64,000 nucleotides of DNA from positions 1,560 through 65,559 of the forward strand of contig JBGTEX010000034.1 of NCBI GenBank assembly GCA_041747575.1, read 5' to 3'. The stretch comes from Pyrinomonadaceae bacterium. GTDB taxonomy: Bacteria > Acidobacteriota > Blastocatellia > Pyrinomonadales > Pyrinomonadaceae. A program made the position numbers and the translations under genes. Position 1 is the first letter of the stretch; each line of letters opens with the position of its first letter. Shown piece after piece: positions 23,291-37,417 of this stretch. A model generated the notes under the pieces. That model was not told the DNA's origin. It worked only from the letters and a program-made list of their open reading frames with translations, and made no database searches.

Positions 23291-23620
23291 CTACGCCTCG
23301 ACGGTCTGAGCCCCCGGGCCGTTTTTCTTTACAGATTCTATACCGTTTTCCATCGACGCGGTTGATTTATACATTTCGCTTTGGCCGATAACCTGTCCGT
23401 TTCCGGCTTTCAGCCTAAAATACGGATCGCCGCTCTTTGACGTCGCGCGCTCGTAACGGCCGTCATCGCCCGCGTTCTTCGCAACGGAAGCAATGCCGTT
23501 CACGGCCGCCGATTTTGACTCGTACATTTCGCTTGTTAGGATGATCTGTCCGTTTCCGGCCAAAAGATTAAAGTGATATTTGCCATTCCTGGCAACCTTT
23601 AATTCGAATTTTCCCGCCAT
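23291..23620 (-). CDS. yegP: YegP family protein (two DUF1508 repeats)
   Basis: 109 aa. Two repeats of the ...NGQIILTSEMYESKSAAVNGIASV... / ...NGQVIGQSEMYKSTASMENGIESV... pattern. Confidence 0.85.
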   Translation of the reverse strand: MAGKFELKVARNGKYHFNLLAGNGQIILTSEMYESKSAAVNGIASVAKNAGDDGRYERATSKSGDPYFRLKAGNGQVIGQSEMYKSTASMENGIESVKKNGPGAQTVEA

Positions 23621-23713
23621 TTTTATTTTTCTCCTTTAGGTGATGCTGTCAGGTAAAAGTTTTATTTTATCAGCGAATAGAATATCGCACAGGTGATCCC
23701 GCTTTATCAACCG

Positions 23714-24193
23714 CTAAGCAATAAAATCGTGGTGCAGATCGCGCGGGCCCAGATTGTTTCGGATAATGATGCGTGCACAGCCGTTCCAACGCAAAATTGC
23801 GTCGTCTATCCCCTGCGGCCTCATCGCTTCGGCAGTTTCAAAACAGTCCATCGCCTGGCAGAATAGCTCATACGCTCCGGCGGCGCCCCGGTTGAGAACA
23901 GCCTTTGCCCGCCGCTCATACATGATGCCGGTGTAGTATGAGCGTTCATAATCGCTTTTGATCCGCGTCACAAATTCGGCGATACGTGCGTCACCGATGG
24001 CGTAATCTTTACCAAAGCGGTCGCTCATTGCGAGGACGATATTTTTAAGCGCCTCCTGATTATCAGGCTCGACAGCGAGAATATCCAGATAAATGCTCTC
24101 TGCGGCGCCCGGCTCATTCAGCAGACGGTAGCGGTTTGCCTTTTCTAACGCGGCCGGGATCGCTTCTTCGGATAATGATTTTAATTCAAACAT
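23714..24193 (-). CDS. hypothetical protein, TPR-like helical
   Basis: Track ORF 23714..24226. Starting at MFELKSLSEEAIPAALEKANRYRLLNEPGAAESIYLDIL (24193) avoids overlap with the upstream gene. Confidence 0.5.
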   Translation of the reverse strand: MFELKSLSEEAIPAALEKANRYRLLNEPGAAESIYLDILAVEPDNQEALKNIVLAMSDRFGKDYAIGDARIAEFVTRIKSDYERSYYTGIMYERRAKAVLNRGAAGAYELFCQAMDCFETAEAMRPQGIDDAILRWNGCARIIIRNNLGPRDLHHDFIA

Positions 24194-24197
24194 AGGC

Positions 24198-24485
24198 TCA
24201 GGTTTTTGTATTTTTTTGCAAGGCAAATGCCCCCTCGTTTCGCCGCCAATTAATAAAACCCATTATAAGCCCAAACAGCGTACCGTGCAGAATAAATCTT
24301 ACCCACGTCGTCGAATCGCTGAAATATTGCCCAAACGACTGAGCTTCGCCCGGAAAAAGAAAATACCCAACCACCTGCAGCACGACCGCAAACGGCCCGC
24401 CGGTTATCAGGATGCCGTCGAAAAGCAAATACCGCCAGATGCCCTTGTCGCGTTTTTCGTTCCAGATTTCGGGCGAATATTTCAT
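24198..24485 (-). CDS. small membrane protein (2 predicted TM helices), hypothetical
   Basis: Track ORF 24198..24506 starts at TTG. The ATG at 24485 gives MKYSPEIWNEKRDKGIWRYLLFDGILITGGPFAVVLQVVGYFLF... Confidence 0.45.
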   Translation of the reverse strand: MKYSPEIWNEKRDKGIWRYLLFDGILITGGPFAVVLQVVGYFLFPGEAQSFGQYFSDSTTWVRFILHGTLFGLIMGFINWRRNEGAFALQKNTKT

Positions 24486-24506
24486 AAATGTATCGTTAGC
24501 AGACAA

Positions 24507-24606
24507 GTGTCAGCAGCCCACACGTAAGTAAGGGCTAATTGTACCCTGTCACGCCGTTTTCAAGGCCGTAATTCCTGGCACTTACTCACGTGCGGGCTAC
24601 TGACAC
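24507..24606 (-). other. long RNA hairpin (26-bp stem, 48-nt loop) between sdhB and the downstream small gene
   Basis: Arms 24507..24532 and 24581..24606 pair at 23 Watson-Crick positions. The other 3 positions are C-A mismatches on the plus strand and become G-U wobbles in the minus-strand transcript. Confidence 0.6.
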
Positions 24607-24619
24607 ATCGTGACTGATC

Positions 24620-25363
24620 TCACTTCTTCCTAAACAGTTTTACCAACTTCACGAGCGGGTCATAATGCTCATCGACCACACGCTCTTTTAGAGGAATAAT
24701 AGCATTGTCCGTTATGGTAATGTTTTCGGGGCAAACCTTTGAGCAGCACTTTGTGATGTTGCAATAGCCTATGCCGTGGGCGTCCTTTAGTTCCTGCGTT
24801 CTGTTTTCGGTGTCGAGCGGGTGCATTTCGAGGGCTGCGACGTGGACTAAAAAGCGAGGGCCGATGAATTCGTCGTGTTTCTGGTGGTCGCGGAGAACGT
24901 GGCAGACGTCCTGACACAAAAAACACTCGATACATTTACGAAATTCCTGTACGCGGTCGATGTCTTCCTGCTGCATCCGCCATGTGCCGTCCGCGGCGTC
25001 GGGACTTCGCGGTTTGAATTTCTTGATTCGTTTTTTAACTTCGTAATTCCATTTTACATCCGTGATCAGATCTTTCATCACGGGAAAAGCCCGCATCGGC
25101 TCGATCGTCACCGGCTCGTCCAGCGGGATAGTGTCGAGGCGCGTCATGCACATAAGCTTTGGCTTGCCGTTGATCTCAGCCGAGCATGAACCGCATTTCC
25201 CGGCTTTACAGTTCCAGCGACAGGCAAGGTCGCCCGCCGATTCCGCCTGTATCTGATGCACCGCATCAAGCACGACCATCCCTTCGGAAACTTCGGTTTG
25301 GTAGTCAATCATCTCACCACCCGTCGCCCCGCCGCGTCTTATACTAAATGTTGCTTGTGTCAT
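24620..25363 (-). CDS. sdhB: succinate dehydrogenase/fumarate reductase iron-sulfur subunit
   Basis: 247 aa. Cys clusters CRWNCKAGKCGSCSAEING, CIECFLCQDVC and CNITKCCSKVCP. Confidence 0.9.
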   Translation of the reverse strand: MTQATFSIRRGGATGGEMIDYQTEVSEGMVVLDAVHQIQAESAGDLACRWNCKAGKCGSCSAEINGKPKLMCMTRLDTIPLDEPVTIEPMRAFPVMKDLITDVKWNYEVKKRIKKFKPRSPDAADGTWRMQQEDIDRVQEFRKCIECFLCQDVCHVLRDHQKHDEFIGPRFLVHVAALEMHPLDTENRTQELKDAHGIGYCNITKCCSKVCPENITITDNAIIPLKERVVDEHYDPLVKLVKLFRKK

Positions 25364-25560
25364 TTCTCTTGTGGATCTAATGCTCCAGGTTCGAGGAGTT
25401 TTACGATCTGCTCCCGCTTTACTGACGGAAAGTCTTCCAGGAACTCGTTGATGGTTTCGCCTGTTTCCAGATAATCGAACAAATTACTGATCGGAACTCG
25501 CGTTCCGTTAAACACCGGAGTGCCGCCAAGGATATCTCTGTCTATGTTGATGACCTTCAT
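25360..25560 (-). CDS. DUF433 domain-containing protein (antitoxin-type HTH), embedded in the sdh operon
   Basis: 66 aa. The sequence DRDILGGTPVFNGTRVPISNLFDYLETGETINEFLEDFPSVKREQIVKLLE matches the DUF433 pattern (dP.i..GkPvi.GTRipV..vl..l..G.s.eeil.dyP.lt.e.i). Its TGA overlaps the sdhB ATG (ATGA). Confidence 0.75.
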   Translation of the reverse strand: MKVINIDRDILGGTPVFNGTRVPISNLFDYLETGETINEFLEDFPSVKREQIVKLLEPGALDPQEK

Positions 25561-25569
25561 AAGATCATT

Positions 25570-27381
25570 TTACCCCATTTCTTCAATGACTTTCTTTAAC
25601 TCCGCCGGCATTTCCGGAATCGGAACACGCTCGATCTTCATCGCACCGTCGTCGGTTTTCTTTAATGAAAAATTAAACTTGCCGTATTCAGGATCTTTAT
25701 CGGGAAAATCATCGCGAAATTGCCCGCCGCGGCTTTCTTTTCGTTCGAGCGCAGCTCTTGTGACCGCTTCGGAAACGGTCAGTAAATTATGCAGATCAAG
25801 CGCGGTGTGCCAGCCGGGGTTGAAGTCGATGTTACCGTACGCGAAGGCGTTTGCGGCCCGGTTTCGCAGGACGTCGATGCCGTTGAGGGCCTCGATCATT
25901 TCATCATGAGTGCGTACGATGCCGACGTTTGCCTGCATCATTTCCTGCAGATCGGTTTGGATCGCATATGGATTTTCGCCGCCTTCGCGTTCAAAAGGTT
26001 CGAGCGCCGACTTGGTTTTTTTAGCGATCTCATCGTTATTTATGACGCCGTGACCGTTTTCTTTTGCAAATGCGGCGGCGTATTCGCCGGCGCGTTTCCC
26101 AAAAACAATGAGGTCGGACAGCGAATTCCCGCCGAGCCGATTTGCCCCGTTAATGCCGGCCGCGCATTCGCCCGCGGCAAATAGACCAGGGACGGTCGAT
26201 GCCTGCGTATCCGCGTCAACCCGGATGCCGCCCATGACATAATGCGTTGTCGGCCCCACCTCCATCGGCGTCGTGGTGATGTCGAGATTAGCAAGCTGCT
26301 TAAACTGGTGATACATCGATGGCAGCTTTTTCTTGATGTGTTCGGGTGCGTTGTCGAGCTTTTCTTTTATCCAGGCAATATCGAGAAAAACGCCGCCGTG
26401 CGGCGAACCGCGGCCGGCTTTTACTTCGCGGACGATGCAGCGGGCGACGTGGTCACGGGTTAAAAGTTCCGGCGGCCGGCGGGCCTGTTTATCGCCGACG
26501 ACGTATCGCCATCCTTCGTCCGGCGTATCGGCGGTCTGATCTTTATACGGGCCCGGTATGTCGTCAAACATAAACCGGCTGCCTTCACTGTTTTTGAGAA
26601 TCCCGCCTTCGCCGCGAACGCCCTCAGTCACCAGAATTCCGCGTACGCTGGGCGGCCAAACCATACCGGTCGGATGAAACTGGATAAATTCCATATCGAT
26701 CAGCTCAGCACCCGCGTCATAAGCGAGCGTATGCCCGTCGCCCGTTCCTTCCCAACTGTTCGACGTGATCTTATAAGCGCGGCCAATACCGCCCGTCGCA
26801 AGAATAACGGCTTTAGCCTTAAAAACACGAAAACGGCCGTGCTCGCGCTCATACGCCAGGCAGCCTGTCACACGTTCGCCGTCTTTCAAAAGCGAGATGA
26901 CCGTTACCTCCATATAGACCTCGACGCCCTGATGGATGCCGTGATCCTGGAGCGTGCGAATGAGTTCGAGGCCGGTACGGTCGCCGACGTGTGCGAGCCG
27001 AGGGTAGCGGTGGCCGCCAAAATTTCGCTGCAAAATCCTGCCGTCTTTTGTCCGGTCAAAAACGGCTCCCCACGCTTCTAATTCGCGAACCCGATCAGGT
27101 GCTTCTTTGGCATGCAATTCGGCCATTCGCCAATTATTTATGTATTGGCCGCCACGCATCGTGTCGGTAAAATGCACCTTCCAATTATCGCGGTCATCGA
27201 CATTAGCCATCGCCGCCGCCATGCCACCTTCAGCCATCACGGTGTGGGCCTTGCCAAGCAGCGACTTACAGACAAGGCCAACCGAAACGCCGGCCGCCGA
27301 AGCCTCGATCGCAGCACGCAATCCCGCGCCGCCGGCGCCGATAACAAGAACGTCGTGTTCAAATGTAGTGAGATCTGTCAT
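25570..27381 (-). CDS. sdhA: succinate dehydrogenase/fumarate reductase flavoprotein subunit
   Basis: 603 aa. FAD-binding DVLVIGAGGAGLRAA, then HTVMAEGG, FHPTG and RLGGNSL. Confidence 0.95.
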   Translation of the reverse strand: MTDLTTFEHDVLVIGAGGAGLRAAIEASAAGVSVGLVCKSLLGKAHTVMAEGGMAAAMANVDDRDNWKVHFTDTMRGGQYINNWRMAELHAKEAPDRVRELEAWGAVFDRTKDGRILQRNFGGHRYPRLAHVGDRTGLELIRTLQDHGIHQGVEVYMEVTVISLLKDGERVTGCLAYEREHGRFRVFKAKAVILATGGIGRAYKITSNSWEGTGDGHTLAYDAGAELIDMEFIQFHPTGMVWPPSVRGILVTEGVRGEGGILKNSEGSRFMFDDIPGPYKDQTADTPDEGWRYVVGDKQARRPPELLTRDHVARCIVREVKAGRGSPHGGVFLDIAWIKEKLDNAPEHIKKKLPSMYHQFKQLANLDITTTPMEVGPTTHYVMGGIRVDADTQASTVPGLFAAGECAAGINGANRLGGNSLSDLIVFGKRAGEYAAAFAKENGHGVINNDEIAKKTKSALEPFEREGGENPYAIQTDLQEMMQANVGIVRTHDEMIEALNGIDVLRNRAANAFAYGNIDFNPGWHTALDLHNLLTVSEAVTRAALERKESRGGQFRDDFPDKDPEYGKFNFSLKKTDDGAMKIERVPIPEMPAELKKVIEEMG

Positions 27382-27385
27382 TCAG

Positions 27386-27535
27386 TCGGAGCGCGGACAC
27401 TCTTGTCCGCATGAGCACAAAGTGCGAAAAAACATTAACCTGAGAAACAACGCCGCCGCAAGATCGGAGCGCGGACGCTCTTGTCCGCATGAGCACCAAA
27501 GTGCGAAAAAAACATTAACCTGATAAACAACGCCG
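27386..27535. repeat. two tandem 78-bp REP-like units, each with a GCGGAC(A/G)-CTCT-TGTCCGC hairpin
   Basis: Unit 1 starts at 27386 and unit 2 at 27464: TCGGAGCGCGGAC(A/G)CTCTTGTCCGCATGAGCAC(C)AAAGTGCGAAAAAA(A)CATTAACCTGA(G/T)AAACAACGCCG. Hairpins at 27393..27410 and 27471..27488. Confidence 0.8.
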
Positions 27536-35689: not shown

Positions 35690-37417
35690 ATGAAAATCGT
35701 TGATAAGATTGGTTTTGCATTCGCTTTGGCGGCTCTTTTTCTGACTGTGTTTCCGGTTCAGAGTCCGGTGTTTTCCCTTGACTTTCGGTCCGGAGCACAG
35801 ACGCCACGACCACGAACCCTTGAAAAAAATACGCCGACCCCGACGCCGGTTCCGTCCGCCACGCCGACCCCGGTTCCGTCCGCCACGCCGACCCCGGTGC
35901 CGGCCGTCACGCCGACGCAGGTTCCGTCCTTCACGCCGACACCTGTTCCGGTTCAGACGCTTGACGAATTGCGTTCAAAAATTCGGCAGCGGTTGTTTGC
36001 ACCCGAAGTTCGACGCGGGCGGGTCGGGATAAAGATCGTTTCGCTAAATTCGGGAAAGGTCGTTTTTGAGACCGATTCCGAAAAATACTTTATGCCGGCG
36101 TCGAATATGAAAAATTTTACGGTCGCAGCCGCGCTCGAACGGCTCGGCCCCGATTTTCGGTTTGTAACCGGTGTTTATGCCGATGCGCTGCCCGATTCGA
36201 CGGGTACGATAAAGGGCGATCTTCGAATTTTTGGCCGCGGCGACATTTCGATATCGACCGCTTTTTTTGGGACCTCGCCAACCGATCCTGAAACTTATTT
36301 CAAGGGCGTCGACCGGTTAGCCGAACGAATAATTGCGGCCGGGGTCAAACGAATCGACGGCAGCATAGTCGGCGACGAAAGTTATTTTAAGGGCTTTGCG
36401 ATTCCCGGTACGTGGGAATGGGACGACCTGCAATTCTATTACGGAGCCGAGATTTCGGCCTTGCCGATAAATGACAACGCGGTCGATATCGCCGTCTCGC
36501 CGGCCGGTCTGGGCGAGCCTTGCGTGGCCGGCATTTCGCCGGCAAATACGATCATCCGCGTCATAAATCTATGTACGACAACCGGTGCGTCGATTGCCCG
36601 GAATCTGAGCGTCGTAAAACAAATAGACAGGAATGTCGTTGAAATTTCTGGCACAATTCCGGTCGGCGGTTTAGCATTTAAAGGTACGGTGGCGGTCACA
36701 CGTCCGTCTGCTCTATTTGTCGCCCTTTTGAAACAGCGTTTGGAACAAAAAGGCGTGGCCATCACCGGCGGTTCGCGTGTGCTACCCGCAAATATAAAAG
36801 CCGAAGCGTCACAGATCGAAATTACAAAGCTCGAATCGCCGCCCCTCTCCCTGATTGCCGCCAAAACGATGAAACCGAGCCAGAATATGTACACCGAAAC
36901 GCTTCTCTGGACACTCGGCGAATACGCCCGCGCACGGCTTGACGTACCAACCGTCGGTCCGGATATGAGAGCAGTTCCGGACAGTTCACAACTGGGTATA
37001 AGCGAGGTGAAATATTTTCTGTCAAAGATCGGCGTACCCGAGGACGGTATAATCCAGTATGACGGCAGCGGCCTCTCGCGTCACGACCTGGTCACACCGG
37101 CGGCGGTGGTGACGCTCTACACCTATATGGCCACGCTCAGCCCGTATAAACAGGCCTGGCGTGACAGCCTTACTATCGGAGGTGTGGATGGCACATTAGC
37201 AAGAAGATTTACGGGAACGGCCGCCGCCGGCAATTTTCGCGGCAAAACGGGAACGATAGATCAGGTCTCGGCACTTTCCGGTTATATGACGACCGCCGCC
37301 GGCGAACAGCTTGTCGTCTCGATCCTGATAAACGGTGTCGCCCAGACCCGTACACGCGTCTCGCTCGCCGACGATATCGTCATCGCACTTGCAAATTTTA
37401 ACGGAAAGATCGATTAG
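35690..37417 (+). CDS. dacB: D-alanyl-D-alanine carboxypeptidase/endopeptidase (PBP4, peptidase S13)
   Basis: Track ORF 35684..37417 starts at GTG; ATG at 35690. Signal peptide, Pro/Thr-rich linker, SxxK motif PASNMKNFT and GKTGTI (KTG). Confidence 0.85.
   Translation: MKIVDKIGFAFALAALFLTVFPVQSPVFSLDFRSGAQTPRPRTLEKNTPTPTPVPSATPTPVPSATPTPVPAVTPTQVPSFTPTPVPVQTLDELRSKIRQRLFAPEVRRGRVGIKIVSLNSGKVVFETDSEKYFMPASNMKNFTVAAALERLGPDFRFVTGVYADALPDSTGTIKGDLRIFGRGDISISTAFFGTSPTDPETYFKGVDRLAERIIAAGVKRIDGSIVGDESYFKGFAIPGTWEWDDLQFYYGAEISALPINDNAVDIAVSPAGLGEPCVAGISPANTIIRVINLCTTTGASIARNLSVVKQIDRNVVEISGTIPVGGLAFKGTVAVTRPSALFVALLKQRLEQKGVAITGGSRVLPANIKAEASQIEITKLESPPLSLIAAKTMKPSQNMYTETLLWTLGEYARARLDVPTVGPDMRAVPDSSQLGISEVKYFLSKIGVPEDGIIQYDGSGLSRHDLVTPAAVVTLYTYMATLSPYKQAWRDSLTIGGVDGTLARRFTGTAAAGNFRGKTGTIDQVSALSGYMTTAAGEQLVVSILINGVAQTRTRVSLADDIVIALANFNGKID
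35831..35956 (+). repeat. five tandem ~24-bp coding repeats (TPTPVPSA-type linker) inside dacB
   Basis: ACGCCGACCCCGGTTCCGTCCGCC and variants, repeated head to tail. They encode TPTPTPVPSATPTPVPSATPTPVPAVTPTQVPSFTPTPVP. Confidence 0.8.

Follow-up and report, generated by a model that had tools for sequence, protein, structure and literature searches.

The hairpin considered here lies in the sdh operon of an acidobacterial genome, at the junction between sdhB and a conserved 95-aa ORF, within a stretch of 64,000 nucleotides that is referred to below as the window (Table 1). The 274-aa ORF upstream of sdhA had no match in Pfam and is presumed to be the membrane anchor, while the 95-aa ORF looks, judging by its sequence, like a small membrane protein, and is possibly an uncharacterised protein linked to succinate dehydrogenase. 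No obvious Shine-Dalgarno sequence was found in the 21 nt before the ATG of this small ORF. The two tandem units on the other side of sdhA represent a repeat type other than the REP sequences described below, and the sdh operon thus carries at least two different repeat insertions.

Table 1. Features of the sdhB locus in the window, and copies of the REP unit in frame within genes elsewhere in the genome (positions preceded by C and a number refer to contigs).
Feature	Position	Strand	Evidence or remarks
Conserved 95-aa ORF	24198..24485	-	Pfam and NCBIfam: no match
REPIN (two inverted REP units and spacer; ~100-nt hairpin)	24507..24606	.	Inverted repeat, folding, arms match dispersed family
sdhB-distal REP unit (3' arm in the sdh transcript)	24507..24537	+	Relative to consensus: position 8 T>C, position 14 G>A
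Spacer between the 31-nt units	24538..24575	.	48 nt when measured between the 26-nt cores
sdhB-proximal REP unit (5' arm in the sdh transcript)	24576..24606	-	26-nt core identical to the consensus; G at the variable position 20
sdhB, succinate dehydrogenase/fumarate reductase Fe-S subunit	24620..25363	-	Pfam Fer2_3 and Fer4_8; stop TGA 24620-24622
sdhA, flavoprotein subunit	25570..27381	-	Pfam FAD_binding_2 and Succ_DH_flav_C
Two tandem ~78-bp units, each with a GCGGAC...GTCCGC hairpin	27386..27535	.	Between sdhA and the 274-aa ORF upstream of sdhA
In-frame REP copies	C5:40157-40187, C16:13470-13644, C62:35135-35165 and 36395-36425, C62:16759-16789
In-frame REP copies	C2:6453-6483, C2:11769-11835, C10:40751-40862, C23:3272-3371
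In-frame REP copies	C25:288-318, C29:6879-6909, C63:6119-6149

The geometry of the hairpin was as an earlier note on this DNA, made from the letters alone, had described it, with two 26-nt arms forming 23 Watson-Crick pairs and three exceptions. The arms differ at exactly three sites, arm positions 8, 14 and 20 (24514/24599, 24520/24593 and 24526/24587), each of them a transition. In RNA of the minus strand these sites become G·U pairs and in RNA of the plus strand C·A mismatches, which is the strand asymmetry on which that note had remarked. An inverted-repeat search extended the arms to 24507-24535 and 24578-24606 (29 nt, 86% complementary), and the stem of 26-29 bp has its base 4-13 nt from the sdhB stop codon. 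Its distances also agreed with those given before (stem 14 nt past the sdhB stop and 21 nt before the next ATG): the stop and the stem are 13 nt apart, and the ATG at 24485 follows the stem end at 24507 after 21 nt, the order on the minus strand after the stop being GATCAGTCACGAT-GTGTCAGTAGCCCGCACGTGAGTAAG-(48 nt)-CTTACTTACGTGTGGGCTGCTGACAC-TTGTCTGCTAACGATACATTT-ATG.

Folding of both strands, which the note had proposed as a check, favoured the minus strand. The minus-strand (sdh) RNA reached -61.7 kcal/mol (z = -7.7), a value equalled by 0 of 200 shuffles, compared with -48.8 kcal/mol (z = -4.3) for the plus-strand RNA (about -49 in the cross-genome comparison below). The missing U tract, from which a classic terminator had been doubted, was indeed absent after the stem on both strands, and a scan with a consensus terminator returned nothing at the hairpin. 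An Rfam scan of 23500-25500 at permissive E-values gave three chance-level matches elsewhere in that region and none on the hairpin.

A dispersed REP family and its RAYT-like gene

When the 126-nt hairpin region was used as a BLAST query against the genome of the window (G000; 3.5 Mb in 67 contigs), 88 matches were obtained, nearly all of them to arm sequence. Pattern searches resolved these into 64-69 units of ~31 nt, the count depending on the mismatch threshold, arranged in 38 clusters, while the number of arm repeats expected by chance in the window is 0. The unit, with the consensus GTGTCAGTAGCCCGCACGTNAGTAAGGGCTC, therefore has the size (20-40 nt) and the many dispersed copies that characterise REP sequences and REPINs. 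Position 20 of the consensus varies throughout the family (A, C, T or G), and thus one of the three G·U sites of the sdhB hairpin is polymorphic in the family as a whole.

Canonical REPs are defined by a unit hairpin that has GTAG at its foot (PMC6006769; PMC3733652). In the present family GTAG is found at the foot of, and overlapping, an AGCCC...GGGCT stem, and because this stem is short (5 bp, -4.9 kcal/mol as single-stranded DNA, z = -2.1) the unit displays that anatomy only weakly. At sdhB the distal unit retains the AGCCC/GGGCT hairpin, and the proximal unit, whose inner 5 nt read TGCCA, has lost its own.

Neighbouring units in the genome formed 11 '+-' doublets, 0 '-+' doublets and 14 tandem pairs, and so '+-' is the sole inverted configuration, as has been described for REPINs (PMC3337134). 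Inverted doublets that fold into a long hairpin, with one preferred configuration, are characteristic of REPINs. Some of the doublets have spacer segments in common. The spacer of the sdhB doublet is unique, with no second copy in the genome or the genus, so that transposition of this exact element as a unit is a conjecture. The tandem copies on contig C37, which have a 37-nt period, were considered as a possible CRISPR-like array; this was rejected, as the 31-nt units lie only about 6-8 nt apart and the same unit is dispersed elsewhere singly and in inverted pairs.

A scan for the 23-nt core with up to 2 mismatches located the family in 23 of the 24 same-genus genomes first sampled, at 1-168 copies each, whereas among 16 genomes from other families of the class it was lacking in 15; a reversed-pattern control gave 0 everywhere.

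The densest clusters of units, 3 on one side and 7 on the other, flank a candidate gene on C37 (about 90766-91296) with a product of 176-190 aa, the real start, judged against its orthologues, probably being the ATG that gives MPKRDYIEFQ... and a protein of about 176 aa. The gene is single copy in G000, and members of the protein family are present in 37 of 41 congeners. Alone, the candidate scored 22.7 bits against Pfam Y1_Tnp, just under the cut-off of 23, and 21 bits against the NCBIfam model REP_Tyr_transpos (NF047646), for which the cut-off is 80; given that it did not pass this curated model, and by so wide a gap, we regard it as a divergent subfamily and refer to it as RAYT-like. A PDB search with the single sequence returned only noise.

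The family as a whole was more informative. In an alignment of 25 members the residues H117/H119 (NHxHxVV) and Y177 were invariant, 24 of the 25 matched Pfam Y1_Tnp, and a PDB profile search gave weak but consistent matches, with IS200 transposases first and aligned on the HUH motif. An AlphaFold model (pLDDT 77.6, core above 90) was used for Foldseek, and its top 30 matches comprised nothing but IS200/IS605 TnpA structures and 4er8, the RAYT of E. coli (rank 5, probability 1.0). Sequence and predicted structure both point, then, to an IS200-like fold that carries the HUH motif and the catalytic Tyr, as in RAYTs.

In the closest orthologues, those of G019 (67% identity), G046 (60%) and G006 (55%), units with the same REP core lie immediately beside the gene; this is not so for more distant paralogues, as would be expected if each REP family has one RAYT. 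A single-copy gene flanked by its own REPs is a REPtron in the sense of PMC6006769. This REPtron, together with a hicB/hicA toxin-antitoxin pair, has a nuoE-like gene on one side and a nuoF-like gene on the other, both belonging to a complex I operon (C37:88500-93500, L009).

The sdhB junction in congeners

Relatives matched through SdhB were Acidobacteriota MAGs labelled Chloracidobacterium sp. or Pyrinomonadaceae, and sdhB 3' regions were recovered from 29 congeners, with the small ORF downstream in 18 genomes counting G000. A look-up with the exact SdhB protein gave no record. In 12 congeners the start of the small ORF overlaps the sdhB stop (..AGGAAGAA-ATGA-AATATT.., or GTGA) and there is no hairpin; in one more the ORF begins 12 nt past the stop, again with no hairpin, to give 13 hairpin-free junctions in all. 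Absence of the hairpin from related genomes was what the earlier note had named as refuting its interpretation, and these 13 congeners have none.

A doublet of the REP family was present at this junction only in G000 (spacer region of 134 nt), G052 (103 nt) and G005 (93 nt), with quite different spacers, and G023 and G015 have palindromes there that are unrelated to the family. The presence or absence of the element at orthologous sites is that expected of a mobile REP. On a tree of 1.48 kb of sdhA/B, a single locus, G052 was sister to G015 (100/100) and G005 to the empty-site genome G011 (97/92), with G000 unplaced. Since the occupied genomes do not form a clade on this single-locus tree, the junction appears to have undergone repeated insertion or replacement. 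Metagenome contigs were scanned for exact matches to the arm/spacer junction and to the sdhB 3' end, with 0 matches for either pattern and hence no occupied or empty alleles at the level of a population.

At every one of the five occupied junctions xTGA borders the insert at either end (..AAG-TGA-[insert]-ATGA-AATATT; window 24483-24622, and L019, L020, L021 and L041). This is either a target-site duplication or the outcome of a stop and a start that both had to survive; to our knowledge, target duplication is not made by HUH-Y1 transposition. In two further genomes (G019 and G042; L036 and L037) a small palindrome just downstream of sdhB is followed by an ORF beginning MYNWRKLSEDDREYV...PWHAPPHF, which looks by its sequence like another tyrosine-transposase-type gene.

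Copies within genes and the gltX hot spot

The copy at sdhB is intergenic, yet 18 of the 38 REP clusters in G000 are spanned by an open frame (63% for random positions). This open-frame test was used in place of a dicodon coding-potential scan, which failed to separate tight intergenic from intragenic positions. At least 12 clusters lie in frame in long ORFs (Table 1), and are always read ..VSSPHVSKGS.. or, in the opposite orientation, ..ALTDVRATD... Four of these ORFs were scanned against Pfam, and in GltX, MutS2, HPPD and MetG real domains were found on both sides of the insert, MutS2 having two REP inserts and MetG three 24-aa tandem copies. The sequences of the other interrupted ORFs suggest ThiC, an E2 acyltransferase, homogentisate dioxygenase, restriction-modification enzymes and a 2-oxoacid oxidoreductase. 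Intragenic copies are a known exception to the extragenic location of GTAG REPs, and in-frame examples are known from other phyla, tRNA synthetase genes included (PMC3733652); thus the acidobacterial case is a new instance and not a new phenomenon.

The C-terminal region of gltX was compared across 30 genomes (L158-L187). One codon position in it holds 0-3 nt in at least 9 congeners, the present REP family in four genomes (G000, G015, G023 and G044), and other palindromic families in others, for example SSPPYEGGVDAALGGRGGS in G004, G024, G045 and G048 and AETRPVGSVP in G002, G010 and G042. This codon position is an insertion hot spot common to several repeat families.

Two other repeats were noticed. 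A second dispersed palindromic family with the core CTCCTTACGAAGGAGG has 8-23 copies per genome in G004, G014, G024, G045 and G048 and 1 in G000, often occurs as inverted pairs 100-120 nt apart, and is among the families that occupy the gltX site. An in-frame repeat, GARTLLSAS(P/A)..., is present as three tandem ~31-aa copies in the homogentisate dioxygenase-like ORF at C2:11769, and also in the ORFs at C23:3272 and C25:288; it is probably a further REP-type family that is translated inside genes.

Origin and possible consequences of the hairpin

Taken together, these data lead us to conclude, with a probability of roughly 85%, that the hairpin is a REPIN, that is, an inverted doublet of GTAG-type REP units from a genus-specific family most likely spread by a RAYT, inserted at the sdhB junction. 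The hairpin is an ordinary mobile-DNA insertion and not a purpose-built RNA signal, and the stem is long because both arms are copies of one mobile sequence. We base this on the family to which the arms belong, the distribution of that family across the genus, the way its doublets are built, the REP units around the RAYT-like gene, the empty sites and the non-monophyletic occupied sites, and from these we infer RAYT-mediated mobilisation of the family. The single-copy RAYT-like enzyme encoded on C37 would spread the units by recognising the hairpin in single-stranded DNA, as RAYTs that mobilise REPINs are described as doing (PMC3116915, PMC3337134, PMC6006769), and the sdhB doublet would have been inserted into an ancestral 4-nt overlap (ATGA) of the sdhB stop and the small-ORF start. 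There are findings that count the other way, among them the sub-cut-off scores of the putative RAYT (22.7 vs 23 and 21 vs 80), the weak unit hairpin with its 5-bp stem and -4.9 kcal/mol, the location of about half of the REP clusters outside extragenic sequence, the unique spacer of the sdhB doublet, the xTGA flanks that resemble a target duplication, and a strand gap at sdhB that is the largest in G000.

The last of these bears on the proposal of the earlier note, that the strand asymmetry reflects selection on RNA structure. A version of this proposal compatible with the family data is that the element is a REPIN by origin which has since been co-opted and is now under selection for a role in the sdh mRNA (as an RNase III site, a 3' stabiliser, or an insulator between the sdh genes and the small ORF), and this we consider unlikely, although a number of observations speak for it. 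The hairpin is more stable by 12 kcal/mol in sense than in antisense RNA (-61.7 vs -49.3 kcal/mol), the largest such gap among the G000 doublets, and all three core mismatches are G·U in sense; the stem of 26-29 bp is long enough for RNase III, and rnc is encoded in the genome; the stem is within 15 nt of the stop, the range in which REPs of E. coli affect translation according to Liang 2015, as it is related in PMC12306157; and several unrelated palindrome families occupy the sdhB junction in other congeners. On the other hand, 13 congeners do without any hairpin, and the other two doublets at the junction show either no sense advantage or the opposite, both having A·C mismatches in sense RNA: G052, whose single core mismatch is of this kind, gave -81.0 kcal/mol in sense and -84.7 in antisense, and G005 -60.5 and -61.0. 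The unrelated palindromes of G023 (-20.9 and -24.9) and G015 (-43.6 and -51.2) likewise fold better in antisense. Nor is there a family-wide strand bias, G·U-type mismatches in the G000 doublets numbering about 16 in sense and 12 in antisense by rough gene orientations. Three transitions in the same direction have a chance of 1 in 8, and one of the three sites is the family polymorphism. Moreover, as single-stranded DNA the G·T wobble stabilises the same strand equally (-28.0 vs -24.9), and thus the asymmetry cannot separate an RNA-level from a DNA-level constraint; and given that the arms are copies of one repeat, apparent covariation in the stem would not indicate RNA selection either. We therefore do not retain selection on RNA structure as the explanation of the asymmetry, while noting weak evidence for some local tuning of the G000 doublet. 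A striking hairpin that seems strand-selected is here fully explicable by the architecture of a mobile repeat, and consequently a G·U asymmetry in a single copy is weak evidence for selection at the RNA level.

It was also reasonable to consider a MITE-like element moved by some means other than a RAYT (a DDE transposase, recombination or gene conversion), with the REP units around the RAYT-like gene being incidental. The xTGA on both sides of all occupied junctions looks like a target-site duplication, the RAYT candidate scores weakly as a single sequence, and some RAYT paralogues at 58-60% identity are not flanked by the REP core. Nevertheless, 10 units lie directly around a single-copy gene, the same arrangement recurs in three other genomes, the unit has the GTAG-plus-hairpin anatomy, and the xTGA is equally explicable by selection for a stop and a start that must both survive, so that we find such an origin quite improbable. 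A Rho-independent terminator of the sdh operon, possibly bidirectional, would account for a strong GC-containing hairpin immediately past a gene, and yet is scarcely credible given the lack of a U tract on either strand, the blank consensus scan, and a conserved co-oriented ORF 21 nt on that is translationally coupled to sdhB in relatives. Somewhat speculative, and in our judgement rather doubtful, is the notion that the sdhB/small-ORF overlap and the gltX loop codon are recurrent landing pads for unrelated REP families, with the G000 doublet tuned, by changes that preserve G·U pairs, to work as RNA and uncouple the small ORF from sdhB; if true, it would imply site-directed insertion or the exchange of one REP for another, with xTGA duplicated at the sdhB junction.

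On the preferred reading of an inserted REPIN, the hairpin would nonetheless have effects in RNA, plausibly as by-products and not as the reason for the structure. With co-oriented genes on either side and no terminator, the hairpin would be co-transcribed, and it may then block 3'-5' exonucleases and so protect the upstream sdh genes, the classical REP effect according to the account of Newbury 1987 and Higgins 1988 given in PMC12306157. The insertion would abolish the ancestral coupling of termination and reinitiation at the overlapping stop and start, and hence the coupled translation of the small ORF. As the hairpin starts 4-13 nt past the stop codon, terminating ribosomes may also be hindered, E. 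coli REPs within 15 nt of a stop being described in PMC12306157 (after Liang 2015) as stalling them. Cleavage of the 26-29-bp stem by RNase III, whose sites call for about 20 bp or more of dsRNA, would be possible too, there being an rnc gene. A role for the sdhB hairpin as a 3' stabiliser, an insulator or a processing site is therefore conceivable, and effects of these types are documented for REP elements of other bacteria (PMC12306157, PMC3733652).

These results document a REP/RAYT system in an uncultured acidobacterial genus. Natural alleles with and without the insert, both at an operon junction and within essential genes, provide ready-made comparisons with which the effects of REPINs on mRNA stability, on translational coupling and on the tolerance of proteins to insertions could be tested.

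The closest parallel is the REPIN/RAYT system of Pseudomonas fluorescens SBW25 (Bertels & Rainey 2011; PMC3116915, PMC3337134), in which inverted units with a variable, non-conserved spacer form a hairpin of ~90-100 nt, one doublet configuration dominates, clusters surround a ~500-bp single-copy HUH-Y1 gene, and the family is lineage-specific with a variable copy number. The present system differs in that its host is an acidobacterium and not a gammaproteobacterium, its copies are fewer (~65), its units form a much weaker palindrome, its RAYT has diverged strongly, with a Pfam score at the cut-off, and many copies are in frame in genes. With the REP/BIME elements and TnpA-REP of E. coli (PDB 4ER8; PMC6006769) it shares a GTAG tetranucleotide at the hairpin base of each unit, the arrangement as a REPtron, a predicted fold that matches TnpA-REP (Foldseek probability 1.0), and the placement of elements just past stop codons, where they are able to affect mRNA stability and translation; in contrast, its units have no detectable similarity in sequence to the REPs of E. 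coli, the NCBIfam TnpA-REP model scores 21 vs 80 bits, and the biochemical activity of the protein is a prediction. Finally, the intragenic GTAG/CGTC REPs and the Rickettsia palindromic elements (Di Nocera et al. 2013, PMC3733652) resemble the present family in that one family is found both between genes and in frame, genes of conserved proteins such as tRNA synthetases and repair proteins are hit, and the inserts amount to 10-30 residues, mostly between domains, whereas here the host is an acidobacterial genus and a single gltX codon position has received at least three repeat families across species.
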